Virus record (IMG/VR): IMGVR_UViG_3300028599_000003
From: a virus
DNA length: 64,000 nucleotides
Strand: one strand, 5' to 3'
Shown here: positions 10,511 to 60,775 of the stretch, piece after piece
How the letters are laid out: each line of letters starts with the position of its first letter
Position numbering within the stretch: the stretch's first letter is position 1
Notes under the pieces: generated by a model
The model's database searches: none
What the model was told of the DNA's origin: nothing
What the model saw: the letters and a program-made list of their open reading frames with translations, nothing else
Position numbers and translations under genes: made by a program

Positions 10511-10693
10511 TTACTTCTTTTTAGATTTTGTTCCACCATACATTTTATAGTCTATCACTGACCCGCCAGACATAAAACCTTTTAGTCCTCCACTTTTAGC
10601 CATTGATTCCATTCCTGCTTTACCTGGAGTTATGTCTCCATCACCAGCACCTTTTGTAAATCCACCACCATATGTGTATTTTTCATTTTTCAT
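10511..10693 (-). CDS. small basic Gly-rich protein with repeated xxGG motifs (60 aa)
   Basis: YTYGGG, AKSGG, FMSGG, KMYGG; ends in KSKKK. Confidence 0.7.
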   Translation of the reverse strand: MKNEKYTYGGGFTKGAGDGDITPGKAGMESMAKSGGLKGFMSGGSVIDYKMYGGTKSKKK

Positions 10694-12184: not shown

Positions 12185-12403
12185 TTATTTGCCATCATAG
12201 GTCCATCCACCCATTTTATATTTTTGTTTTTTATCTTTGCCGGATTTATCCTGTACAATTCTTTCTGCATCACCTCCCTTACGCATTTTTTCTGTGTAAG
12301 AGCCTTGCATCATGTCTTCTAGTTCACCACCAGTTCTCATAAGCATTTTACTTTTTTGCCTTGATAACTTCTGCTTTGGTAAACATGGTCTATTTTTTGC
12401 CAT
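12185..12403 (-). CDS. small basic protein with repeated MxxGG motifs (72 aa)
   Basis: MRTGG, MRKGG, YKMGG; Lys/Arg-rich. Confidence 0.7.
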   Translation of the reverse strand: MAKNRPCLPKQKLSRQKSKMLMRTGGELEDMMQGSYTEKMRKGGDAERIVQDKSGKDKKQKYKMGGWTYDGK

Positions 12404-40119: not shown

Positions 40120-43071
40120 TTACATTCCCATCTTACCACTGTAAAACGGCACTGCCCACTTTGATAGTCTTTTTATTTCTTTTCCTTTTTGTGATTGATT
40201 CAACATTCCTCTTGCTGCATCATAACCTACAGGTGCACCTTGATTGATTAGCTCTTGTTGTGCATTTGATCTTGTATTAGTAGTATTTGAGTCAGGACCA
40301 TATATCCTTTCCCACATATCTTTTGTAACTTCTCTTTGAACACCCTTATCATCTTTACCAACAAGCTCCTGTAATCTTTGCCACTTTTCTATATTTGCTT
40401 GAGTTTGATCTCCTTGAGAATCTTTCAACAATCTTTTACCATTAGGACCAAATTCAACATCACCACCTTTTAAAGGGTTAACATTATAATAATCATACAA
40501 CTGGTTCATATTATATGTATTGGCTGCGTTTGTTATACCAGCATTATATAAATCATTATATCTACCAGTTTTCCAATTTTTAAAATTCTGAGCATTCTGT
40601 AATGCTACAGTGGTATCATCATATAATTGTTTGTTTGTTGCATTGTTAGCCATGTCAACTTTCATATCTAGTTGTGGTTGCATTGTTGCAACTTGATTCA
40701 TAGTTCTAACATTGTTCTGGTTAACTTGATTTATAGCTTTAGCATTAGCATCTAAAGTTTTACCTTGAATATTACTACGTGCAATTGCCTGTGGTCCATA
40801 TGCACCTAATGCATTTGCCATAGTGTTTTGTGCTGCTAAATTTGCATTGACTCTTCCTGTATAATCATCTAATACATAATCAATTTTTTGATCTTCTAGT
40901 TGAGGAGCCCAAGGCAGGAACAATTCATCATCAATAGCATTTAATGCAAGTATGTTATTAACATCTTGTTTCCACCACTCTTTTTCTGGGTCAGGTTTAA
41001 CTGGTGGTGTTTTTTTCTTTTCTTCTGGATCATCTGGTAAATCCATAAACTGCTCATCACCAGGTTGATAGTCCATATCAAACCCAGGTGCATTTACAGT
41101 ATAACCACCTCTCTTACCATCAAACCTTCTTTTATTCCATTCATCATCTAACTTGCCATCACCATCTTTATCATAAGTATCAGGATCATTTTTAAGTCTT
41201 TCCTCCAATACTTCATCGGTAAAGAAATAAGGTATGTACTGAACACCTTTTTTATCAAAGTATGCTTTTCTTTTTTCTTCATATTTATTTTGGAATCCTC
41301 TCCAGTTTGCATCATAGTTTGGATCACTCATTTTCATATTAAACTTGAAGTCTATACCATCTGCTTTTAAAGCATCTATAACAGCCTGATTTCTGTAATA
41401 AAAATCTTCTTCTGATTCTTTACTAGAAAACATATCTGAACCATATCCAAAGCCATCTGTATTTTTAGACTGAGTATCAGGCAATTTATTACCAGAAAAC
41501 TTACCACTTATAAAAGTTGCTACGTCACCTACATCTGGATCATTATTTAACTCTTGTTGAGTTCTTATTTCAGGAGTATAAGTATCAGATAAACCACCAG
41601 CCCCAGATATTTTATTTTGATCAAACACCTGAACTTCAGTAGCCTCTTTCATAGTTCTACCATCAATAGGCCCTCTAACAAAAGATATTTTATTTTTACC
41701 GTCTTTCTTTACTATTGTAGGAGAATATCCATCTGCTATATACTTATCATACTGTTTAGCTTTTTCACTTCCAGCAGCATAAGGATTTTTAGCACCATTA
41801 GTATTAACCACAGTTTCTACTTGTTTGTCAGTTGCAGTTGTAGTTTTATCTGTTGTTAGAGCATCTGTTTCTGTCTCAGTAGTTGTCTCAGTAGTTTCTT
41901 CCATGAGTCTATATGCATCTGGCACTTGACCACTTTGAATTGCAATAAGAGCTTGTCTTCTTAATTCTGATTTGGGTATTGGATCAGAACCATCTTCTAG
42001 ATACCATGCTTTACCATTCCAAGTAGCATCTTTCATGTTCTTAGGATACCCAATTTTTTTTCTTTCATAGTAATCTCTTGCAGTTTCTCCTTTCCTTTGA
42101 TAGCTTTCTAATTCTTTACCATAACCAGCTTTAACTAAAAAGTCTCCAAGCTCAGTTCCATACTGTGCCATAGATCCCATCATAGCATTATTTTCCATTG
42201 CTAACCCTGGCTCTCCTGGTTGAGGCATAAATGCTTCCATAGGTGCTGGCATTCCTTGCTGAGGCATCTGTTGTTGCATACCTTCTTGCTGTTCTTGTTG
42301 AGCCATCATTTGTTGCATCATCATTATTTGTTGCTGTTGCTCAATAGGTAATGCTGCTAAAGCTTTAGCTTCTGCTTCTTTCCTTGATATCTCTTCTACT
42401 TTAGCTGTAAACTCAATAGGGTCTTCACCTATAGAAACTAAATATGGATGAGATGCTAAAGGTACACCATCAGAAAAATCCTTTTTGGCTTCTTGTACAA
42501 AAGCAAGCTTTGATAAGTCATTCATGTTTTTCTTCAACATAAGCTCTGCACTTGTAGCTGATATTTTATCTGCATACTGTGAATCTAATTCACCATAATA
42601 CTCTTGTAACCCAAACTTCTTAGAAATTTTAGCAGGTGTTTTTTTACTTCCACCTACTCCAAACTCACTCATTTCATCTTTTGTAAACTTAAGTTTTCTT
42701 GTGTCAGAAAAAACAAAAGATTGTTCTGGCAAAAACATTGGTACACCTCCACTACCGTGTCTTGGTCCTTGTATGTCATACAGACCAAATGTACCGTCAT
42801 CATTTAAATCAGTTAAAACTGTTTCTCCACCCTCTGCTTCTAAATTAGCATCTTCTCTGGGTACACTTGATAAACTATATCTAACAGATTCATCACGTGA
42901 ATTATTAAAATTAGTATTACCATAATATGCTTGTGGAGTTGTAACCAAACCGTAGTCAGATTGATCACCTGTTACCATACCACCATGTTCCATAGACATT
43001 GCATCTTCAACAACCTTTCCATTACGGATGCTAAAACCTTGTGGTAATTTGTTTATTTTAATTTTTGCCAT
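40120..43071 (-). CDS. modular virion cargo protein (983 aa)
   Basis: ANLEAEGGE...GPRHGSGG...FVFSD module recalled from crAss-like virion proteins; Q/M/P-rich spacer; N/Q/A-rich C-terminal helices. Confidence 0.65.
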   Translation of the reverse strand: MAKIKINKLPQGFSIRNGKVVEDAMSMEHGGMVTGDQSDYGLVTTPQAYYGNTNFNNSRDESVRYSLSSVPREDANLEAEGGETVLTDLNDDGTFGLYDIQGPRHGSGGVPMFLPEQSFVFSDTRKLKFTKDEMSEFGVGGSKKTPAKISKKFGLQEYYGELDSQYADKISATSAELMLKKNMNDLSKLAFVQEAKKDFSDGVPLASHPYLVSIGEDPIEFTAKVEEISRKEAEAKALAALPIEQQQQIMMMQQMMAQQEQQEGMQQQMPQQGMPAPMEAFMPQPGEPGLAMENNAMMGSMAQYGTELGDFLVKAGYGKELESYQRKGETARDYYERKKIGYPKNMKDATWNGKAWYLEDGSDPIPKSELRRQALIAIQSGQVPDAYRLMEETTETTTETETDALTTDKTTTATDKQVETVVNTNGAKNPYAAGSEKAKQYDKYIADGYSPTIVKKDGKNKISFVRGPIDGRTMKEATEVQVFDQNKISGAGGLSDTYTPEIRTQQELNNDPDVGDVATFISGKFSGNKLPDTQSKNTDGFGYGSDMFSSKESEEDFYYRNQAVIDALKADGIDFKFNMKMSDPNYDANWRGFQNKYEEKRKAYFDKKGVQYIPYFFTDEVLEERLKNDPDTYDKDGDGKLDDEWNKRRFDGKRGGYTVNAPGFDMDYQPGDEQFMDLPDDPEEKKKTPPVKPDPEKEWWKQDVNNILALNAIDDELFLPWAPQLEDQKIDYVLDDYTGRVNANLAAQNTMANALGAYGPQAIARSNIQGKTLDANAKAINQVNQNNVRTMNQVATMQPQLDMKVDMANNATNKQLYDDTTVALQNAQNFKNWKTGRYNDLYNAGITNAANTYNMNQLYDYYNVNPLKGGDVEFGPNGKRLLKDSQGDQTQANIEKWQRLQELVGKDDKGVQREVTKDMWERIYGPDSNTTNTRSNAQQELINQGAPVGYDAARGMLNQSQKGKEIKRLSKWAVPFYSGKMGM

Positions 43072-43073
43072 AA

Positions 43074-45821
43074 TTATAATTTTTCTATGTCAGCTCCAGC
43101 TGCAATTAGTTTTGCTAACATTCTTGAATCAACTTCTACAGTTTGTTCACCTCCATTTTGTTTTTTTGATTTAATCAAATGAAGATACCCATCACTATCA
43201 TCATAATAGGTTTTATTTTTAAAGCTATATGATTTACCATCTTCTGGATCCGGGTCTGAAGTATAATAAGGAGCTTTATTTTTATGATTTACATTAACCT
43301 GTTCACCTGCATTATATGCTTCAGGATCAATTTGTGATGCTAAATATTGCTGTAATTTAAACTGAGGAAACATCTTGGCACCGCTTACGCTATTACTATT
43401 TCCCACAAATAATGTATCATTTTGAGTAACTCCCATTTGAGACATAATATCTTTTATAGCTGTAACATCACTTTTGTTTTTATTTTTAAATAATTCTATA
43501 TATTCATCTAGATATTCATGATCATAGTTTTTGATTCTATTTTTTCTCTCTTTCCTAGTTTCACCTTTATCTTGATACTTAGATAACTCTCTTTTAATAA
43601 CTCTATCCCTATTTGCTAAATATGCTTCTTCTCCTTTAGCTCCACCATATGCCATATTACTAAGTATGTTATGCTGTGCTTCTGGAGGTAATGCTTTGAA
43701 GCCAGGGTTGTTTACACCACCACCTTCTTTACTCATATATAATCCTGTTGTTGCATCACCTTCACTACCCATCAAACCAGAATTAATATCAAACGTACCT
43801 CTTTTATTAAAGGCATCTGTCTTAGTTCCATATATATTATCTGCAACTAAATCACCTCTTAATTCTTCTTGTGCTTTCTTTTTATTTCTTTCATCAAACC
43901 AATCATTAGCAACATCTGCTGCACCAACAGCAAAGTTTGATAAATCACCAAATGCTGTGGCAACTGTACTATTTAAAGCTCTATCTAAAAATCCACCTAC
44001 ACCACCATAGTTTGCATCAACTTCAGGACCCTTTATATCTGTAAATAAATCTGCTGCTGATCTTTGTGCAGGCACATCATTTGTTTGAGCTACTGGTGGA
44101 GTTGGGTTAAAAGGATTATTAAACCCAGCTACATATTCTTGATACAATTGTGGACCATTAGCAACACCTCTTGTAACAGGATCTTGCGCAACCCATTCTT
44201 GAAAAGAAAGCATTTGATTTGCTACTGGACCTGCCATTTGCATATTAGGTATTTCAGCTCCATACTTAACTAACATTTGTTGATAGTCAGAAAAATTAGG
44301 AACGCCTTTATTAAACCCTGGATCTAAAGGACCATCATAGTCTTTTGGTATAAACTGATCAAACCCAGGATCATTATTTTCAATAGACTCTGGTAATTTC
44401 ATATCAAAGCTAGGATCTAAATCTACTTCTTGTGGATCTTTACTAGTAGCACCTGGGTCTTTACCGCCAGCTGACATTGGATCTACTTTATATTCAGTTG
44501 GTATTTCTTGTCCTTTCCTTTTTAATATAGATTCAATATATGCTTTTGTTTCTGCTGATCCACTTTGCCACTTTTCTAGCAAATCATCAGATACTTTTTT
44601 TACGGCACTTGGGGCATTTATATCATCTAGTACTTTATCTGCTTCTGTTTTTATAATATTTCCTAATGCATCTTTCTGTTGAGTTAGTTCTGGATTTTCA
44701 ACTTGAAATTGTTTAAACCATGTTGCTGCAGCATTTTTATTTTCATCACTTGTATCAAACTTAACGTCATAAGTGGCATTAGCCATCTTTTGCATTTTGT
44801 TATTAATATGCTTACCACGCCAGTCTCTAAAGCTACCATCCTTTACACCATCACCATCTTTATCCTTACCACTAAACATATCTTCATATGCAGTTAAAGC
44901 CACGTTTGCAGCTTTTCCTAAATTAAATTCTGCATCATTAAAAATAGCAGGATTAATATACATTGGTCCTGGCTCAAGTATACCTTCATCTTCTAGATTA
45001 CTTATTAAACCTTTATTTTTAGTTTTAACTGCGTCCTCACTTTTAGAAGCATTTAAAAAATCAGACATCATTTTTGTATTATCTGTACCCTCTTCAGATG
45101 TTACTACTGCTCCTGTTTCTACTCCGTCTGCTGCTTTAGGTGCATCATGATTATAACCTGCTTCTTTAAGTCTAAGATGAGTAGCCATATCTCTAGCTCT
45201 AATCTTTCTATCACCTTTATACATAAAGTGTGGTTCAAATTCACCACCCTCTTCTTTTTTCCATCCAGCTGCATTCTTTGCAAAGTTAGCCATCTTAACT
45301 ACTGAAGCAGGATAGTTATCTGTATTGCTCATAACTTTGTTATAAGCTTCAGATACTGACATACCTCTTGCTTTAGCCCATCTTGTAAACTTACCCTTGT
45401 TTTCTGGTTTAATTTCTATACCAGATTTAGCCTGATCAATAGATGTTATATTCATATCCATACCAGGAGCTTCTTGTTGTATTTCTTCTGCTCTTGCTAG
45501 TTGTTGTGGATTATTTGTAATTTGCTGTGGACTAGGTTCTTGTGGTTGTTGTAGTTTTTGTACATCTTCAAACAAACTTATAATTGCTTCTTCTTCATAA
45601 CCCAACTGCATAAGAGCTTGACCTATAATATTTTGATCAACTTCTTGCTGCATTAAACCCATCAATACTTCTTGAGGTTGCTGACCTTCTTGAACAGCTG
45701 CAGTAAACATTTCACTTATCTGCATAACTTGCGGATCAACTTGAGGTTGTTGCTGCAGACCAGGTTGTTGAGGAATCATTGATCCTCCTTGTTGTTTTAC
45801 ACTTTTTTTGTTTAAATCCAC
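43074..45821 (-). CDS. modular virion cargo protein (915 aa)
   Basis: Q-rich N-terminus; IKPENKGKFT...ANFAKNAAGW and FEPHFMY...GYNH mini-modules separated by xxGG/xAxG motifs. Confidence 0.65.
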   Translation of the reverse strand: MDLNKKSVKQQGGSMIPQQPGLQQQPQVDPQVMQISEMFTAAVQEGQQPQEVLMGLMQQEVDQNIIGQALMQLGYEEEAIISLFEDVQKLQQPQEPSPQQITNNPQQLARAEEIQQEAPGMDMNITSIDQAKSGIEIKPENKGKFTRWAKARGMSVSEAYNKVMSNTDNYPASVVKMANFAKNAAGWKKEEGGEFEPHFMYKGDRKIRARDMATHLRLKEAGYNHDAPKAADGVETGAVVTSEEGTDNTKMMSDFLNASKSEDAVKTKNKGLISNLEDEGILEPGPMYINPAIFNDAEFNLGKAANVALTAYEDMFSGKDKDGDGVKDGSFRDWRGKHINNKMQKMANATYDVKFDTSDENKNAAATWFKQFQVENPELTQQKDALGNIIKTEADKVLDDINAPSAVKKVSDDLLEKWQSGSAETKAYIESILKRKGQEIPTEYKVDPMSAGGKDPGATSKDPQEVDLDPSFDMKLPESIENNDPGFDQFIPKDYDGPLDPGFNKGVPNFSDYQQMLVKYGAEIPNMQMAGPVANQMLSFQEWVAQDPVTRGVANGPQLYQEYVAGFNNPFNPTPPVAQTNDVPAQRSAADLFTDIKGPEVDANYGGVGGFLDRALNSTVATAFGDLSNFAVGAADVANDWFDERNKKKAQEELRGDLVADNIYGTKTDAFNKRGTFDINSGLMGSEGDATTGLYMSKEGGGVNNPGFKALPPEAQHNILSNMAYGGAKGEEAYLANRDRVIKRELSKYQDKGETRKERKNRIKNYDHEYLDEYIELFKNKNKSDVTAIKDIMSQMGVTQNDTLFVGNSNSVSGAKMFPQFKLQQYLASQIDPEAYNAGEQVNVNHKNKAPYYTSDPDPEDGKSYSFKNKTYYDDSDGYLHLIKSKKQNGGEQTVEVDSRMLAKLIAAGADIEKL

Positions 45822-45840
45822 GTTGATAATATTATATTAT

Positions 45841-45851
45841 TAATATACAAA
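45841..45851 (-). promoter_or_regulatory. recurring upstream motif TTTGTATATTA
   Basis: Exact copy 20 nt upstream of GTG 45821. Confidence 0.6.
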
Positions 45852-45881
45852 TAATTAAGGAGATTCACTAATCTTTAGGGT

Positions 45882-48800
45882 TTAAGCTTGATAAAGATGA
45901 GTCAAAATATAGTTAGGTGGTGACATATTACCCAACTCTTTTGCATCTTTATAATGCTTTCTATTTAATTTATCATATAAACTTTTAGCTTTACTCTCAT
46001 TGTCAGTTCCATTATAGACACCATCTATATAATCTTTATACATTTGTATTTGTTTTTTCTCTCCTCCTACTGCATAGTTTGGCATATACTTTCCTTTTTG
46101 TTGAAATTTTAAATACTTAGCATGTTTTTTAACGTTATCTGTATATGTTTTACCACCATCCTTACTTGATCCTCCCCAGTGTTTAGGAAGTGTGTTAAAT
46201 AAATCATTTCTATCTACACCCTTTCTATTATTAGCTAAGAATGCTAATCTTAATACAGTTGCTATAGCTGCTTTTTCAGGATCTAATAAATCTTTATTAG
46301 ATGTTATACCAAACTTCTTTAATATATTTATTTGTTTTTTGTCCTTTGGTAAATTCTTATCTTCCTTTATTATATTATCCCATCTAAGTTGAGTTAAACC
46401 AACACTGTTATAATCTTCTTTTGCACTTTTTTCATAAACAGGAAGATCAGTCTTCAAACTATCTTTTACAGCAAGAGCTATTAAAGGAGAAAGAGATGTT
46501 AATCCATCTAATGTATCTATTTTATAACCATCATATTTTTTAAATACATCAGGTGAAGAAGTAACTTTAGGTAAAAGATCAGTTGAGCCAACTATTGGTA
46601 AGTCACCTTTTCTATTTTGATCAGCTACAAATTTTGTAACACCTCTTGTAAAGTTTCCACCAGCACTGTGTGTATCACCAAAATTAGATTCATTACCATA
46701 AATACCAAAAGCAATTCTAGCAATATCATTATATACATCACTAGGTATACCTGCCTCTACCATTATTTTCTTTTTGTTATTTACTAAAGAATTTATAAAT
46801 GGTTTAGTTGAGTTTTCTTGTTCTTCTTTATCTGAGGAGTCTGAAGTAAAAAAATTACCAATGGACTTTAGAGTACCCGTTTCATTATATACTTCCTCTT
46901 CAAAAGATTGTTGATCAAACACTGGACGTATAGGTTGGTAGTTTAATGTATTTACTGAATAATTAGATCCTTGTTGAGTTTGCTCTTTACCTTTAGAATC
47001 TATATAATTAGAAGTATATTTTTCTCTATTATCCTCTGACATTTTTAATACAGCTTGTCCATCAACCCATTGAAAATTATTACCATCATCTTCTGGTAAT
47101 ACATATACCGCTGTACCTGCAGGCATTCCTAGATCATACAATGCTTGTAAATCAGTACATTGACCATTTATACAACCATTACTTGCTCTATTGTTTTCAA
47201 CATTTCCATCATCAAATAAACCTTTTCTACCAGAAGTAGGGCCATGAATAGCAGTAGCTACATCTATGTCAGTACCATCTGTAAATAAATTAAATGAAGG
47301 AACTCCCTTACCACCATATTTATCTGGTGAGTCAGCATAACTTTCTTTTATATAATACTTACCTGCACCAGTGTTTTTGTTTCCAGCACTCCAGTTAGGA
47401 ATCCATTTACCATTTCTTTTATCTTCATCTGTTATCTTACCATCTTGGTTAAAATCCCACATCTTTGTTACAGTCAAAGCATCACCTTTATTAGCACCTG
47501 TAAGAACTTCAAAGTCTAATATTGACTTTCCACCTCTCCAAACTTCTAATCTCTTTGTTTTTTTATTTACTATAACATAATGACCATTAGGATCATTAAC
47601 CATTTGAGCTTTCTTTATTATATCCTCATCAGCTGAATCATTAATATTCTTTCTGTCTTCATCTAATAAATCAACGTCCTGCCATGTTTCTTCAATTTCT
47701 TCTACTTCCTCATAATTAGATTGAGGTATAACAATATCTTGACCAGCAAAAATTTCATTAATGTTTTTAATTGAACTATTAGCTTCTACAATTTTTCTAA
47801 GAGGAACACCAAATCTTGTTGCTATCCTACCTAATGTATCTCCTGACTTAATATCATAATTAAGAAATTTAGTTTTAGACTTAGGTAATTTTAATTCTTG
47901 ATTGATATCTATTTGACTAGGGTTATCAATATTATTTAACTTTGCAATTTCATCTACAGAAGTACCAAATTGTTCTGCTATTCTTGTCAGGTTATCTCCT
48001 GACTTAATTGTATAAGTTGTCAGATTATCATCTTCTTGTTTAGGCTTTTCCTCAGCTTGTCTAAAAGGACCCATATAAGGAGTAACTGGTTCCTGTACAT
48101 AATTATCTTGTTGCCACATTTCAGGAAGATAAAAACTTTGTTCTTCTTCTGCTTCTTCTTGTCTAATGGGACCTGCATATTGTTTTACCGGAAGACTATC
48201 TTGGTCATTTATATCTTTATAATTATATAACTGCTTATAATAGTCATAAGCTTCATCAGTAGTTGTCTTTAAAAAGTTCTCCTGTACATTAGGTCTGCCT
48301 TCTGTATTTTTATCATACAGAATCATATCAATGTAATCTTGAGTTTCCTGTGGAAGTCTAGATACCCATTTTACATCATTGTATATATCTTCACCCTCTT
48401 CTTTTAATTCATTTAATAAGTCTAATGTATTGCCTCTGCCCCAGTTATATGCAGCTAAAGTTTTAATTAATCTTACATCATCATCTTGATTTTCTTTATT
48501 AATAAATGAAGAGTTGTATAATTCATTCATTGACCACTCTTGAACTTTATAATTTTGTTCAGGGTCATAAGGATCTATTTCATCTACCTTATTTGCTTTT
48601 TTATAATCTGTTATAAGGCTATCTCCTATTTGACCAAGACCCATATATCCTTTATTGCTTTTGGCTTTTGGATCTAGATTAGATTCAACAAAAGCTTGCT
48701 TGTATAAAAGATTTGAGTCTACCTTATTTTTTGTTTTTTCTTTTTTATCAGAATCTTTAGGTATGTAAATCCTATCATAAAATTCATATGGCTTTATACC

Positions 48801-51182
48801 TGCATTTGCTATGCTGTTAAAATCATATTTATCATACATAGAAAGATACTTCTGATCTCTTTCTTTATCATAACCAACCTGTACCTGAAAGTTTTGAAGT
48901 GGATCTGTATCCATAAACTTACTACCGCTTTGTCCAGTTGCCTCAAAATAAGCTTCTTTCATATATGGTAATAAACCATCTACTGTTTGTTTCTCACCAA
49001 TAGCCATGTCTTGGAAATCCAATAAGAAACCTTCTTTATCAAATATCTCATCAGATATTTTATAGTACTGAACATCACTATCTTTAGCCGTAGTTGGTTT
49101 GTATTCTGTTTGCTGTTTTATATACTTATCCTTAGTTGGAATTTTTAATGCACGTGCCCATGCCTCTTCAGAAAAATCAAGATCCCCGTCTTTATCAAGT
49201 GAAGGAGATTCAGGATCTGTTAAACCTAATGCATCACCTATTAATCCAAATCCTTCATTAACAATACTTCCAAACCCCGGATAAGAAACAGGTCTTACTT
49301 GTTCAAACATTTTTAATCTAGTTTCTATATCAAGATCTGGACTCATTAAATCCTTAGTTTGTTTACCTAGCCATGTAGAAAATTCATCTGCCTTTTCAGC
49401 TGCTCCTTCTAAAACAGGAATGACTGCCTCATCTAATGTATTATTACCTCTATTACCTGTTTGTGCTTTTGGAATTGCACCGCCTTTTTGTGCATACCTT
49501 GATTTAGAATCTTTAGATGCATCTGATACAGTATTAAGCATATCAAATATTTCATCATCACTATATATATCTTGCAACTGTAATAAAGGATTATAACCAC
49601 TATCTTCTCCTCTATCTAAATCTTTCACTCTAGATTTTAATTCTTGATATTTTTCTGGAGTTAACTTTTCCGTAAAAGGATCATATATACCTAAATCTTG
49701 TGCTGCTGATCTAATTGTATTTAATCTAGTTCTAGCTTCTGTTGGTTCAGACACATAATCAGCCCAACTATCTTTAGAAATACCTATAGATCCTTCTTGT
49801 ATAGTCCCATCCCTGTTAAACTTTACTATAGGATTACCTTTATCATCATATTTCTCATAGTATGCTTCATCATAATTATTTATTATAGGAACTCCATTAT
49901 CATCATAACCCTCTATATTAAGTCTTTCATCATTAAATCTTTTAACAGTTTTTTCAGGTATAAGCCTATCTGTACCCAGATTTTTTGTAATCTGCATACC
50001 TCTTCTTTGTAAATCATTTAATGGTTGGTCAGTTAAAAAATTATATCCTGCATTTGCTAAACTAACAAAAGGTGATGTCATTGAACCAGTAAAATTTGCT
50101 AAAGCTGCTTTATCCTTTAAAGATAAATTTACCATATATTTAGCCCGTGTGTCGGGCCCTACTCTATCACTACTATGACCTATTTCATGTTCAGCAGTAT
50201 TTACATGAACATGATCTTGATCCAAACCAGCTTGTGCTGGTTCATAAAATTTAATCTTTCCATTATTATTATATGATACTGCAGCTGTTCCCTCATTTCC
50301 TTCTTTTACACCATCTTCAAGCTCAAGATTTATATTTTCTAAATTAGATTTTCTACCAAAAGTTATAAAGTCAGCGTCATCATTTGGGCCAACTTCATTT
50401 GCTAAGATTTCCTTATACATTGGTGAATCTAACCACTGACTTTGAAATGAATTTTTAACAACATCATCATCAATTTTTACTCCTATGTCCTCACCTGCAT
50501 TTTGAGCTTTTGGTAATGCACTACCACCACACTTGTGACATGTAGAGACATCAGCTCCACCATCTGCAGCTTTCCATTTCCAACCACAACTATTGCATTC
50601 CATGGTTTTATCTAATAAACCACCACCAAGTTTCATTTTAGGTTTCCAAGAACCTTTACCAAACTTTAATGCACGTTCTTTATCTTTTCCAAAGTCTATA
50701 ATCTCACCTCTTCTTTTAGCTTCTTCATATACAGGCTTCCAGTCTATTTTTGCTTGTTCAGACATGTCAACCCAAGTACCATCTTCATCTTGAAATAATG
50801 TAGGAAAAGAAAACCAATTTTTACCATCTAAAGTTTCAGTTGCCATAAGATGTGTGGACACAGAACCATCCTCATTGTCCCTAACACCATTTCTTTTTGG
50901 AACTTCATAACCTGTCTGTGCCATAGGTACTTCTAACACACTATCTCCTGGAAACTGATAGTTATTACCAGGCATCATTATCTGACTATTACCTAGATTA
51001 TCTGTTCCCATAACAGGAAAATCTACATCCTCCATTGTTATTGAACCTGACTCAATGATATTAACCGGATTGGTTTTATCAGAGCTAGTACGTTTATAAC
51101 CATCTACAGATATATATTGTGTTATATCTTGAAGATATTCATTTGGTCCTCCCGGTAGTCCTATGCTTTTTTTACGTGCCAT
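45882..51182 (-). CDS. multidomain virion peptidoglycan-active protein: Zn ribbon, HExxH peptidase, SLT transglycosylase, 2x LysM, YkuD L,D-transpeptidase-like, second lysozyme-like domain (1766 aa)
   Basis: CNSC/CHKC; HEIGH 50175-50189; VESN..GLGQ..AAYNWG..ETQDY; YTIKSGDNL and YDIKSGDTL; IHG...SNGCIN; GNESNF..VGLTQ..LLDP. Confidence 0.88.
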   Translation of the reverse strand: MARKKSIGLPGGPNEYLQDITQYISVDGYKRTSSDKTNPVNIIESGSITMEDVDFPVMGTDNLGNSQIMMPGNNYQFPGDSVLEVPMAQTGYEVPKRNGVRDNEDGSVSTHLMATETLDGKNWFSFPTLFQDEDGTWVDMSEQAKIDWKPVYEEAKRRGEIIDFGKDKERALKFGKGSWKPKMKLGGGLLDKTMECNSCGWKWKAADGGADVSTCHKCGGSALPKAQNAGEDIGVKIDDDVVKNSFQSQWLDSPMYKEILANEVGPNDDADFITFGRKSNLENINLELEDGVKEGNEGTAAVSYNNNGKIKFYEPAQAGLDQDHVHVNTAEHEIGHSSDRVGPDTRAKYMVNLSLKDKAALANFTGSMTSPFVSLANAGYNFLTDQPLNDLQRRGMQITKNLGTDRLIPEKTVKRFNDERLNIEGYDDNGVPIINNYDEAYYEKYDDKGNPIVKFNRDGTIQEGSIGISKDSWADYVSEPTEARTRLNTIRSAAQDLGIYDPFTEKLTPEKYQELKSRVKDLDRGEDSGYNPLLQLQDIYSDDEIFDMLNTVSDASKDSKSRYAQKGGAIPKAQTGNRGNNTLDEAVIPVLEGAAEKADEFSTWLGKQTKDLMSPDLDIETRLKMFEQVRPVSYPGFGSIVNEGFGLIGDALGLTDPESPSLDKDGDLDFSEEAWARALKIPTKDKYIKQQTEYKPTTAKDSDVQYYKISDEIFDKEGFLLDFQDMAIGEKQTVDGLLPYMKEAYFEATGQSGSKFMDTDPLQNFQVQVGYDKERDQKYLSMYDKYDFNSIANAGIKPYEFYDRIYIPKDSDKKEKTKNKVDSNLLYKQAFVESNLDPKAKSNKGYMGLGQIGDSLITDYKKANKVDEIDPYDPEQNYKVQEWSMNELYNSSFINKENQDDDVRLIKTLAAYNWGRGNTLDLLNELKEEGEDIYNDVKWVSRLPQETQDYIDMILYDKNTEGRPNVQENFLKTTTDEAYDYYKQLYNYKDINDQDSLPVKQYAGPIRQEEAEEEQSFYLPEMWQQDNYVQEPVTPYMGPFRQAEEKPKQEDDNLTTYTIKSGDNLTRIAEQFGTSVDEIAKLNNIDNPSQIDINQELKLPKSKTKFLNYDIKSGDTLGRIATRFGVPLRKIVEANSSIKNINEIFAGQDIVIPQSNYEEVEEIEETWQDVDLLDEDRKNINDSADEDIIKKAQMVNDPNGHYVIVNKKTKRLEVWRGGKSILDFEVLTGANKGDALTVTKMWDFNQDGKITDEDKRNGKWIPNWSAGNKNTGAGKYYIKESYADSPDKYGGKGVPSFNLFTDGTDIDVATAIHGPTSGRKGLFDDGNVENNRASNGCINGQCTDLQALYDLGMPAGTAVYVLPEDDGNNFQWVDGQAVLKMSEDNREKYTSNYIDSKGKEQTQQGSNYSVNTLNYQPIRPVFDQQSFEEEVYNETGTLKSIGNFFTSDSSDKEEQENSTKPFINSLVNNKKKIMVEAGIPSDVYNDIARIAFGIYGNESNFGDTHSAGGNFTRGVTKFVADQNRKGDLPIVGSTDLLPKVTSSPDVFKKYDGYKIDTLDGLTSLSPLIALAVKDSLKTDLPVYEKSAKEDYNSVGLTQLRWDNIIKEDKNLPKDKKQINILKKFGITSNKDLLDPEKAAIATVLRLAFLANNRKGVDRNDLFNTLPKHWGGSSKDGGKTYTDNVKKHAKYLKFQQKGKYMPNYAVGGEKKQIQMYKDYIDGVYNGTDNESKAKSLYDKLNRKHYKDAKELGNMSPPNYILTHLYQA

Positions 51183-57319: not shown

Positions 57320-58234
57320 TTATCTCTTTGGTCCTGTTACTACTTGAGGGTTAGCAGGCGCATAACTTAAAAACATATTGTAATAATTATGATACTGTGC
57401 TCTTCTGTTCATATTCCAAACTTTTCTCATTTCTTGGAAGTTTGGTGTATTAACAAAACCTAATGCGTTATTTCTTGCTCCTCTTAGTCTACTTTCTACT
57501 AGCTGTAATTGTTGAGATACATTCTCACCATTCCAAACCATATTTTCTAATATTCTTTGTTTTATTGCATACTCATAATATTCATTGCAATATGGTTGAT
57601 CTAATACTAATAAATCACCCTCTGCATTTTCCATAGCACCTTGGTAACTTAAATAGACTTTTCCTGTATTAAACGTAGTTATTAAAAAACCATCTTTTAC
57701 TTCTGCTATATCTACTGCTTGTGCACCTAGACTAGGACAGTAACAAACTTTATCATTAACGTCTTTGATTCTTAATTCAGTCCAAGTATTAAATGTTCTA
57801 AATTGACCACCCCCTATTCTCTGAACTAATTGATAACTATCTTTATCATTACATGTTTTAACAACACATACATCTTTACATACCTTTCCATCTTCACATG
57901 GTGCTACATCACCAGGAGCAGGAACATATGGTACGTCATTGAATGTTTCAACATGGGTTCCTGATGGCATTGTGCTATTTACAGTGTATGATCCACATCT
58001 AAATGCGTAGTTTAAATATTGAAAATCAAAAGGTAATTGACCTTTACCATGTTCTATATCTATAATAACTTCTTTAGTTCTATGTATACGTAACCCTAAA
58101 TCATAATTTACACGTGTTGCAACTTTAATAAGTTGAGCAGGTTCAATTAATCCTTCAAGTGCATACGTTGAAAAATCAATGGAAACATCTTCCATCAATT
58201 GACTAAAAGTTCTATATTTTTGTGATACCCCCAT
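57320..58234 (-). CDS. tail ring / tubular adaptor protein (304 aa)
   Basis: Position between an IHF-like gene and the muzzle, as in crAss-like tail modules; YLSYQG...D...YEYAIKQRILE. Confidence 0.55.
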   Translation of the reverse strand: MGVSQKYRTFSQLMEDVSIDFSTYALEGLIEPAQLIKVATRVNYDLGLRIHRTKEVIIDIEHGKGQLPFDFQYLNYAFRCGSYTVNSTMPSGTHVETFNDVPYVPAPGDVAPCEDGKVCKDVCVVKTCNDKDSYQLVQRIGGGQFRTFNTWTELRIKDVNDKVCYCPSLGAQAVDIAEVKDGFLITTFNTGKVYLSYQGAMENAEGDLLVLDQPYCNEYYEYAIKQRILENMVWNGENVSQQLQLVESRLRGARNNALGFVNTPNFQEMRKVWNMNRRAQYHNYYNMFLSYAPANPQVVTGPKR

Positions 58235-59551: not shown

Positions 59552-60775
59552 TTACAATGCTTGATAAGTTAATTCACATATATTACCCATTGTAGGGTGT
59601 TGTATTTCTAGTTTACCTGAACGTCTATTGCCTACATATTTGTTACTATAATGATAGTAATCTGTTTTACCCAGGCTAGGTAACGTCTTTTCTATAAAAC
59701 CTGCTGTTTCATTTGATGTCATATATTCAACCTTTCTGTCTGTATGTATATGACCTTTAAATAATGTTCTGTTTGTTGTGTCACCCCAAGCTTTTGGATA
59801 CTCTGATGCATATATTAAAGGATTATTCTTGCTACGCTTATCCCCATGTTCAAATGCATTAAAGTTATTATGCCATACATGAACCTTTCTTTCTTCATAT
59901 TTTACATCCCATGTTATCTTATCACAGTCTATTGATCTTGAGAGAGCATGAGCTAAATGATAAGAAGAAAGTCTATCATGATTTCCCGGAACATATACTA
60001 CTACTAATTTGTCACAAAAAGATTTAATATATGTTACAGCCCAATGCATTGCATCAAATGCTTGTACATAAGCCTCTGTAGCGCTCATACAGTTGTCTAA
60101 AAGTGTTCCGCTTGTAGTTGTGCCCTGGAAGGTATCCATGTTGATTAAATCACCTCCTACAACAAAGTACATAGTTTCTATGTGATGTATAGCATTTGCT
60201 CTACTAACTAAGTTCTTAACTGTATCTTCAAAATCTTTATCTATGGTATCATTACCTTCTTTGCCAAAATGAATATCTTGTAGAGATATTACTGCACAAT
60301 GTGGATCATCAGTAAATTTATTTTTATAAGGTATATTTGATATTTTGTATTTTTTGGGAGTCCAGTTTTTTAGTAAGTCTTCAAATAGTTTTTCTTCTGG
60401 ATTTTTTATTTGTGATACTAATGCTGAAACTCTCCAGTGATCACCCATTTGTTTATTCCAATACTGAGACAATTTCCATTTATCAGTGTCTATCTTTAGT
60501 AAGATTATTATTTCTTCTGCACTTTTAGGCTCATGATCAAAAGTTCCAGATAACTTCCCAGTTCCATTTTCTAAATCAATTGCTTCTGCAATTTGTGCAT
60601 TGTCTGCAGCTTTACTAAAAAATATAGATTTCTTTCTTTTGTTTTTTCTTTCTGCTAATAATTCTTTTTTTACTTTCTTATATTGCTTTTCTGTAATGTT
60701 CAGTTTTTCAGCACAATAAGATGGGTGCTTTTTCCATTTTAAACTGTCAAGAACTTTTTGCTTTATATTATCCAT
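59552..60775 (-). CDS. calcineurin-like metallophosphoesterase with basic N-terminal domain (407 aa)
   Basis: DIHFG, GGDLIN, PGNHD, EHGD, GHIH motifs. Confidence 0.85.
   Translation of the reverse strand: MDNIKQKVLDSLKWKKHPSYCAEKLNITEKQYKKVKKELLAERKNKRKKSIFFSKAADNAQIAEAIDLENGTGKLSGTFDHEPKSAEEIIILLKIDTDKWKLSQYWNKQMGDHWRVSALVSQIKNPEEKLFEDLLKNWTPKKYKISNIPYKNKFTDDPHCAVISLQDIHFGKEGNDTIDKDFEDTVKNLVSRANAIHHIETMYFVVGGDLINMDTFQGTTTSGTLLDNCMSATEAYVQAFDAMHWAVTYIKSFCDKLVVVYVPGNHDRLSSYHLAHALSRSIDCDKITWDVKYEERKVHVWHNNFNAFEHGDKRSKNNPLIYASEYPKAWGDTTNRTLFKGHIHTDRKVEYMTSNETAGFIEKTLPSLGKTDYYHYSNKYVGNRRSGKLEIQHPTMGNICELTYQAL

Follow-up and report, generated by a model that had tools for sequence, protein, structure and literature searches.

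Three adjacent genes of an uncultured, marine, divergent crAss-like podovirus raise the question of why the large proteins they encode are punctuated by copies of one short peptide, and of what this peptide does. The genes lie at positions 40120 to 51182 of the stretch analysed here (the window, 64,000 nucleotides of IMG/VR virus record IMGVR_UViG_3300028599_000003), which is the minus strand of a 90.6-kb viral contig with a CheckV completeness of 79%. An initial annotation of the window had noticed about 20 copies of a linker motif between recognisable modules, and had proposed cleavage sites, docking signals or DNA microhomology joints as explanations. The three open reading frames and all the listed motif strings were present as described:

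45882..51182, minus strand: P0001 (1766 aa), with conserved modules at both ends (N-module 1-93, C-module 1709-1766) and a variable middle, as delimited by BLAST homology coverage
43074..45821, minus strand: P0002 (915 aa), predicted cargo protein; no Pfam family; module 137-186 homologous to crAss001 gp45 375-422
40120..43071, minus strand: P0003 (983 aa), predicted cargo protein; no Pfam family; highly conserved N-domain and coiled C-terminal part

We compared these proteins with their homologs (P1, P2 and P3 classes) in 80 related loci and in the complete relative G001 (114 kb). The peptide, here called the tag, is specific to these cargo classes, is conserved as a peptide and is located in the linkers at module edges. 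This confirmed the observation in the initial annotation and supported its interpretation in part.

Anatomy and distribution of the tag

The tag was found to be longer than first described and to consist of two parts. A logo of 166 non-redundant AQ.G sites of the relatives gave the consensus [KR]-Y-G-G-x-L-P-K-A-Q-x-G-x-E, and the unit covers about 11-14 residues. Its half A has the form hydrophobic-x-x-G-G and its half B the form (L/I)-P-(K/M)-A-Q-x-G-x-(E). The halves either adjoin each other (YGGxLPKAQxG, an empty bracket) or are parted by a small inserted module. The commonest gap between GG and the Ala of AQ was 4 residues (35 contexts), corresponding to the empty bracket, and the other gap classes of about 16-25, 36-39 and 75-77 residues each enclosed a small module. 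Among the modules within brackets were a helix module, a Cys knuckle, a zinc ribbon, a beta-beta-alpha module and the N-module of the P1 class itself. In the P1-class N-terminal regions of relatives, for example L017, L022 and L054, two more modules recur in brackets beside the zinc ribbon, another small Cys module (GRCWPGYKPVSGK.AYSKGSC) and a beta-rich one (SVSWQWKGKTYSGTLIP...). The earlier count of about 20 copies in P0001-P0003 held for loose half-sites, with strict tags numbering only about 6-9.

The motif exceeded chance in P0001-P0003. With patterns picked after the data were seen, AQ.G was counted 5 times in P0001-P0003, where 0.71 were expected, and 3 times elsewhere in the 28.7-kaa proteome, where 4.9 were expected; for [MK]AQ.G the counts were 3 (0.07 expected) and 0 (0.5 expected), respectively. 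A position matrix built from the relatives gave 6 matches of at least 12 bits proteome-wide, all of them in P0001-P0003, as compared to 0.59 per shuffled proteome. Because the matched sites are homologous to the training sites, the test is not an independent one. A first matrix, trained on the N-module border, was dropped as too site-specific. Over the 80 loci the density of [MK]AQ.G per 1000 aa was 0.92 in P1, 0.91 in P2 and 0.75 in P3, as compared to 0.01 in the class of the neighbouring 1155-aa protein and 0.00 in the muzzle-like class.

Individual tag residues were strongly conserved. In 66 P3 homologs M27, G30, G31 and G305 of P0003 were invariant and A302 nearly so, and the adjoining linker residues varied; G963 was invariant in a 29-sequence alignment. 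In 47 P2 homologs Q10, G12, G13, G134, E136, G233 and G700 of P0002 were each conserved in at least 90%. As a DNA pattern, the 11-residue string YGGx[LF]PKAQxG was found at 43 sites in IMG/VR, against about 1 estimated by chance, and all 43 were in frame in long open reading frames. In 596 Gb of cellular genomes the same string had only 2 sites, on contigs that both encode homologs of the muzzle, P1, P3 or 1155-aa proteins and therefore look like phage contigs of this family binned into metagenome-assembled genomes (MAGs). On the evidence of these searches the strict tag is restricted to this phage group. The contigs L127 (JBLHPD010000256.1, 'Clostridium sp.' MAG) and L128 (CBDHFF010000001.1, 'Rickettsiales' MAG, 120 kb) carry muzzle, P1, P3 and 1155-aa homologs; they probably stem from phages of this family and were binned into bacterial MAGs.

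A de novo motif search, which had been suggested as a check on the motif, gave no significance on its own: our expectation-maximisation search on P0001-P0003 alone was first dominated by Q/M-rich low complexity and, after masking, did not rise above shuffled controls. The significance of the tag rests for this reason on the comparison with relatives. This failure, and the weakness of the loosest variants (KYG and SQKG) on their own, would fit a pattern produced by chance or by the composition of Gly- and Gln-rich linkers. The comparative data refute such an artefact, to which we give next to no credence, in view of the sharp contrast in tag density between protein classes, the several invariant columns, the 43 in-frame strict sites and the breakpoint counts given below.

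Tags at module edges and the exchange of modules

BLAST segment ends, low-confidence linkers in AlphaFold models and recombination breakpoints agreed in placing the tag at module boundaries of the cargo proteins. In P0001 the variable middle contains a Zn ribbon, a module with the zincin signature HEIGH (at residue 332), SLT, two LysM and YkuD (Pfam: SLT, LysM, YkuD). One polypeptide thus holds at least two unrelated effector domains, as is characteristic of polyvalent proteins. Its tags are the following:

51147..51161, minus strand: GLPGG (aa 8-12), half A opening the N-module; conserved in the P1-class relatives inspected; 75-aa gap class
50904..50933, minus strand: EVPMAQTGYE (aa 84-93), half B closing the N-module; 34 BLAST segment ends in aa 81-100
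50490..50639, minus strand: filled bracket (aa 182-231) of KMKLGGG, a CxxC...CxxC zinc-ribbon mini-module and LPKAQNAGE
49455..49499, minus strand: RYAQKGGAIPKAQTG (aa 562-576), contiguous two-part tag before the enzyme block; matrix score 20.0 bits
46059..46109, minus strand: KFQQKGKYMPNYAVGGE (aa 1692-1708), half-A type tags before the C-terminal module; 25 BLAST starts in aa 1681-1720

The tag closing the N-module had the consensus E-[VI]-P-M-A-Q-x-G-x-E in 38 non-identical relatives. Besides the clusters listed, 8 BLAST starts and 8 ends fell in aa 181-200 and 8 ends in aa 221-240, at the two sides of the filled bracket. In the relative L002 this bracket is empty and reads KMKLGGGLLPKAQTG. 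Nucleotide identity of 97-98% to L002 and L003 begins at aa 569-571, within the tag before the enzyme block, and the enzyme block itself (577-1690, about 1100 aa) is not subdivided by tags. In 134 P1- and P2-class proteins, BLAST endpoints within 5 aa of a tag were 2-3 times commoner than at random positions. The N-termini of P0001 (MARKKSIGLPGG, 51147-51182) and P0003 (MAKIKINKLPQG, 43036-43071) are alike, and this shared start may be a common N-terminal signal.

The tags of P0002 and P0003 were compared with the confidence profiles of AlphaFold models, scored by the predicted local distance difference test (pLDDT). The models were used for this profile only, and no fold search was made with them, because the pLDDT was too poor. 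Twelve of the 14 tags lie in segments with pLDDT<50, mostly at the edge of a confident module (binomial P ~0.002), in agreement with the domain boundaries that had been predicted for the motif. The tags of P0002 are:

45783..45797, minus strand: KQQGG (aa 9-13), closing a leader at the N-terminus that is nearly invariant; within segment 1-26 (pLDDT<50)
45414..45437, minus strand: DQAKSGIE (aa 129-136), half B, directly before the confident module 140-186; the low-confidence segment 93-136 ends there
45117..45263, minus strand: filled bracket (aa 187-235) of WKKEEGG, a 33-aa beta-beta-alpha mini-module and APKAADGVE
44229..44270, minus strand: VKYGAEIPNMQMAG (aa 518-531), degenerate contiguous two-part tag, cf. 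KYGxELPKAQxG in relatives; end of the low-confidence segment 435-534
43557..43736, minus strand: tag cluster (aa 696-755) of MSKEGGG, the NPGFKALPPEAQ module, MAYGG, a helix module and KYQDKGET
43146..43166, minus strand: KKQNGGE (aa 886-892), half A, before the invariant C-terminal helix (LIAAGADI); segments begin at aa 887 and 897

In the filled bracket 187-235 pLDDT falls below 50 at 187-194 and from 228 only, and the module between has values of 62-81. Relatives have this bracket with PKAQxGxE, and L011 has a breakpoint at aa 193. Within the cluster 696-755, which reads YGGEKGEAAYLANRDKVIKREMAKAQDGG in relatives, breakpoints were found at aa 701, 704, 721 and 743, and this cassette is also inserted in P0097, a P3-class protein. 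In the relatives L022 (6900-7200) and L014 (7780-8050) the P2-class gene is split. The upstream pieces end alike (...LNHLLWKECKLNFVA, or ...EPSALERMQAKLRNFVA when read in another frame) and run into stop codons, as if a mobile element or intron had been inserted.

The tags of P0003 are:

42979..42993, minus strand: MEHGG (aa 27-31), half A, with the three invariant residues M27, G30 and G31
42082..42174, minus strand: SMAQYG-TELGDF-LVKAGYG-KELE-SYQRKGET (aa 300-330), tag cluster between the Q/M-rich region and variable middle modules
40177..40200, minus strand: NQSQKGKE (aa 958-965), before the conserved C-terminal tail KWAVPFYSGKMG; within the low-confidence residues 945-983

At the cluster 300-330 homologs carry FLxKAQxG and YQxKGE, and L011 has a breakpoint at aa 315. 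The pLDDT stays below 50 up to aa 323, and a confident module follows from about aa 330. Conservation in the whole family is highest in the first 240 residues of P0003 (42352-43071), where dozens of positions are invariant (EAEGGETVLTDL, GPRH..GGVPMFLPEQSF) and the pLDDT is only 30-50. Because the pLDDT is low despite this conservation, the N-domain may need an assembly in order to fold. Long stretches of low complexity, rich in Gln, Met and Pro (QQQPQ..., MMMQQMMAQQEQQ), adjoin the tag clusters in P0002 (aa 15-118, 45468-45779) and P0003 (aa 240-300, 42172-42354) and are kept in kind across homologs.

The module swaps predicted at the motif were found in relatives. The three genes were compared by blastn with six close relatives, and internal segment ends were counted. 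Of 28 distinct internal breakpoints 15 lay within 6 aa of a motif string of the initial annotation, as compared to 3.2 expected, and none of 20,000 random draws reached 15. P0001 and L002 are 89% identical up to aa 86, between EVP and MAQTG, and 98% identical from aa 571, where PKAQTG begins; between these points only a stretch of 73% identity at aa 107-190 aligns. L002 reads KMKLGGGLLPKAQTGNRGNNTLD, which is residues 182-188 of P0001 (KMKLGGG) joined straight to residue 571 onward (LPKAQTG), and it lacks the Zn ribbon and the zincin module. Recent recombination between close relatives thus starts and stops at copies of the tag: cassettes come or go between two copies, and the tag that is left is intact and in frame.

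Such exchange could mean that the tags are DNA recombination joints and nothing else, the peptide being without function. The mosaic breakpoints at tag copies, in genomes 89-98% identical, and the cassette difference from L002 agree with this explanation, which we nevertheless regard as very improbable. The synonymous codons in 134 tag instances match the usage of the genome (GCT/GCA 68/64, CAA/CAG 105/29, GGT/GGA 90/35, CCT/CCA 60/43), and selection therefore acts on the peptide and not on a DNA microhomology. The proposed DNA signal CCxAAAGCx is merely the codons for P-K-A. Furthermore, tag residues do not change even in homologs of down to about 45% identity, in which the flanking linker residues vary, and half-tags occur also in small non-mosaic proteins and at protein termini. 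Of the microhomology proposal the exchange at the motif stood and the DNA signal did not; recombination at tags is a consequence or secondary benefit of selection on the peptide. As all cassettes share the same ends, recombination between tag copies would yield functional in-frame chimeras, which would explain the shuffling of enzymes between close relatives.

Cut or uncut: the tag in predicted cargo proteins

Judging from sequence and gene order, P0001-P0003 are probably cargo or ejection ('polyvalent') proteins, packed in the particle and injected. In crAss-like phages the genes after the muzzle encode virion-packed cargo proteins (PMC10172136). Two ring genes lie upstream of P0001-P0003:

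58246-58920: CrAss_Ring_2 (Pfam)
57320-58234: CrAss_Ring_1 (Pfam)

They are followed by a 2043-aa virion structural (muzzle-like) protein and then by P0001-P0003. Downstream lie the 1155-aa protein, a 4616-aa protein with the motifs DFDID and HEAFH, and a 1927-aa protein. The three genes are thus placed between the tail ring and muzzle genes and the virion RNA-polymerase genes, which is the position of cargo-protein genes.

A comparison with crAss001 gp45 (cargo protein C1; Bayfield et al. 2023, PMC10172136; PF25725 crAss_CARG1) bears on the question of cutting. The gp45 gene also lies after the muzzle and before the RNA-polymerase genes. A P2-class profile aligned P0002 127-189 to gp45 366-425 (hhalign 83.7% probability, E 8e-6), a single module that is tag-flanked in both proteins, by QAKSG and WKKEEGG in P0002 and by IAKDGG and WNAFGG in gp45; DQAKSGIE of P0002 aligns to IAKDGGD. 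Reading of the gp45 sequence identified half-tags at 207-210 (AYGG), 261-265 (AEGGG), 425-428 (AFGG) and 560-563 (AYGG). These hydrophobic-x-x-GG half-tags border both of the docked segments that are resolved in the virion, one bound to the tail rings (214-245) and one to the portal (425-552) (PMC10172136). The LPKAQxG half was not seen in gp45. The tail-ring segment begins 4 residues past AYGG and ends 15 residues before AEGGG, and the portal domain begins exactly at AFGG and ends 6 residues before MFAYGG. The modelled chain is continuous from A425 through G428 into the domain, and the AFGG site is therefore not cut after GG. The authors treated gp45 as one portal-spanning chain and did not mention a motif or processing for it (PMC10172136).

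The likeness to gp45 is limited in extent. The portal-bound domain (crAss_CARG1, PF25725) was not detected at E up to 10 in P0001 (1-260), P0002, P0003 or the 1155-aa protein, with gp45 itself scoring 222 bits; P0002 is therefore called a gp45 relative by one module only. A P0003 profile against gp45 was negative, and a likeness by eye of the P0003 N-domain (EAEGGET...GGVPMFLPEQSFIFSD) to the portal-bound domain was left unsupported by both searches. The P0002 and P0003 alignments, searched as profiles against the Protein Data Bank, had no credible match there. Among cultured phages, Cellulophaga phage phi4:1, whose proteins are annotated as structural, has in gp040 a P1-type N-module ending LEVPNFQAGG and three more FQxGG tags, and in gp041 TYAQAGGE. 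The corresponding proteins of Flavobacterium phage FPSV-S29 are without the tag.

From this analysis we tentatively favour an uncut connector or docking tag over protease sites. Each cargo protein has conserved N- and C-terminal modules and a variable payload between them, the pieces being joined by one standard bracket. The tag would remain uncut and serve as a connector or docking handle, made of a Gly-Gly turn and a short P-K-A-Q turn capped by Gly. Any module placed in a bracket would then be taken into the virion and, like gp45, be laid out or threaded along the portal and tail.

Several points weigh against an uncut tag. The AlphaFold models are poor (mean pLDDT 52 for P0002 and 58 for P0003). 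Gly-Gly sites are classic cleavage sites in adenovirus and African swine fever virus (ASFV), which process proteins at GG-x (adenain at (M/I/L)-x-G-G). T4 gp21 has a capsid-targeting sequence and L/I-x-E sites, and phiKZ gp175 has S/A/G-x-E sites. G-x-E follows 39% of the AQ.G sites and resembles the [S/A/G]-x-E sites of T4- and phiKZ-type head proteases; it was not seen in the commonest empty brackets. The preprint on phi14:2 speculates that crAss-like giant polyproteins are cleaved, perhaps by a zincin domain (bioRxiv 10.1101/2020.03.07.982082), and the HEAFH zincin of the 4616-aa protein is conserved between G000 and G001. A novel protease or a host protease is possible as the cutter. In addition, the gp45 paper gives no intact masses, and none of its four named peptides spans a tag (PMC10172136).

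If the tags were protease sites, cargo precursors would be cut at the brackets in the capsid or after ejection, and the payload would be freed from its N- and C-terminal handles, the cutter being the zincin of the RNA-polymerase polyprotein, an unrecognised phage protease or a host protease. We consider this possible, though less likely than an uncut tag. Tags do lie in exposed module-edge linkers, GG-E is frequent, and the nearly invariant 13-aa leader of the P2 class ends in GG, resembling the T4 capsid-targeting sequence or a double-glycine leader. Short motifs of small residues with Glu, or of GG, in capsid-packed proteins are shared with the head-protease systems of T4 and phiKZ and with adenovirus and ASFV, as is an N-terminal leader ending in the motif. 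In adenain sites the hydrophobic residue stands one position closer to the Gly pair than here. Autoproteolysis by embedded zincins has been proposed for polyvalent proteins and crAss polyproteins (PMC5512222; bioRxiv 10.1101/2020.03.07.982082).

In the searches for a protease, the zincin motifs HEIGH and HEAFH were found in P0001 and in the 4616-aa protein, respectively, without a match to any Pfam peptidase family. Five complete relatives were without a Peptidase_S77 or S78 match up to E 1, Peptidase_C48 and C39 were absent from G000-G004 (families C5, C57 and C63 being outside the search), and PHROG scans of the G001 head module turned up no protease. The zincin module of P0001 occurs in only about 3 lineages among the 80 tag-bearing loci, so the zincin at 50175, named initially as a candidate, cannot be the general protease; the second candidate, the conserved HEAFH zincin, stays possible. 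In G001, [MK]AQ.G is confined to the homologs of the three cargo proteins, unlike what the T4 and phiKZ systems would suggest for capsid, portal or scaffold proteins. Looser matches in the other virion proteins stay at chance level, and tags are not enriched in the 4607-aa polyprotein. The commonest form, the empty bracket, is hard to read as two sites, and cutting at both halves of the many brackets that hold 16-40 aa would yield tiny, useless peptides. The 8-11 conserved residues also exceed the needs of most protease sites, and the continuous gp45 chain through AFGG speaks against cutting there. Three other enzymatic roles were considered and dropped: a sortase-type LPxTG signal (spacing and variable residue unfit), the tag Lys as acceptor for the YkuD transpeptidase (Lys not conserved, YkuD in a minority) and a transglutaminase Q-tag.

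Literature searches on the motif string and on crAss cargo processing found no description of the junction tag, in line with the initial annotation, which had called it a candidate undescribed system. It is a new feature of a known kind of protein, the crAss cargo or polyvalent proteins. Short peptides at the border of constant and variable regions are known in polymorphic toxins, for example VENN in CdiA and pre-toxin motifs in Rhs and Maf. The tag resembles these in behaviour only, standing at such a border and coinciding with recombination breakpoints; it differs in sequence, occurs in a phage virion, has many joints per protein and brackets both sides of a module. Polyvalent proteins are likewise large, injected and multidomain, with lytic transglycosylase, zincin-like peptidase and effectors shuffled among them, and processing by their embedded zincins has been proposed (Iyer et al. 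2017, PMC5512222). No junction peptide is described for them and the word 'linker' is absent from that text, whereas the joints of P0001-P0003 carry a defined tag.

A more specific form of the docking idea, which is speculative and to our mind doubtful, is that the bracket is a plug-and-play address code. A receptor at the portal, tail ring or inner capsid would recognise YGG/LPKAQxG, modules between or beside the halves would be packaged and later ejected, and small GG-repeat proteins would use the same receptor. Encapsulin cargo-loading peptides are single terminal tags with a known binding pocket. They too are short conserved peptides on otherwise unrelated cargo, directing it to the inside of an HK97-fold shell, but the tags described here are internal, repeated, two-part and without a known receptor. 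An address code would make cargo loading in a tailed phage comparable to that by encapsulin peptides, and would explain the rapid evolution of injected effectors. The selection, arrangement and release of the approximately 5 MDa of carried protein is an open question in crAss-like phages (PMC10172136), and a defined, conserved junction tag offers a direct handle for experiments. If the tag is an address label, foreign proteins could be loaded into phage particles; if it is a cleavage site, it would represent a new viral polyprotein-processing system.

Relatives of the phage and small GG-rich proteins

Megablast of the region and tblastn of P0003 gave no match among GenBank phages. The muzzle-like protein had only relatives of 25% identity there, and no cultured close relative was present. 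Homologs of P0003 numbered more than 1000 in marine metagenomes, on contigs of up to 117 kb. In the middle of the structural module, a 407-aa protein at 59552-60775 (minus strand) matches PHROG 704 'DNA repair exonuclease' (E 6e-46), which is odd for its position.

Half-A tags were also found in two small basic proteins of the window:

12185..12403, minus strand: 72-aa basic protein with three half-A tags (LMRTGG, KMRKGG, YKMGG); the G001 homolog keeps all three
10511..10693, minus strand: 60-aa basic protein; four half-A tags (YTYGG, MAKSGG, FMSGG, KMYGG), then a Lys-rich tail; repeats kept in the G001 homolog

These Lys/Arg-rich proteins, made up for the most part of half-A tags, may lie inside the virion in association with DNA and may use the same tag or system. 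A recurring C-terminus, hydrophobic-x-x-GG followed by a short Lys-rich tail (YKMYGGTKSKKK, LQYGGSNKKSKKK, YKQYGGPKKVKK, EYTGGTKKAKGGKVRTKKKK, KLKWGGKKR), was observed in the protein at 10511-10693, in two G001 proteins (44886-45155 and 45158-45358), in crAss001 gp45 (L137:11988-14513) and in phi4:1 gp040 (L135:28737-31424).

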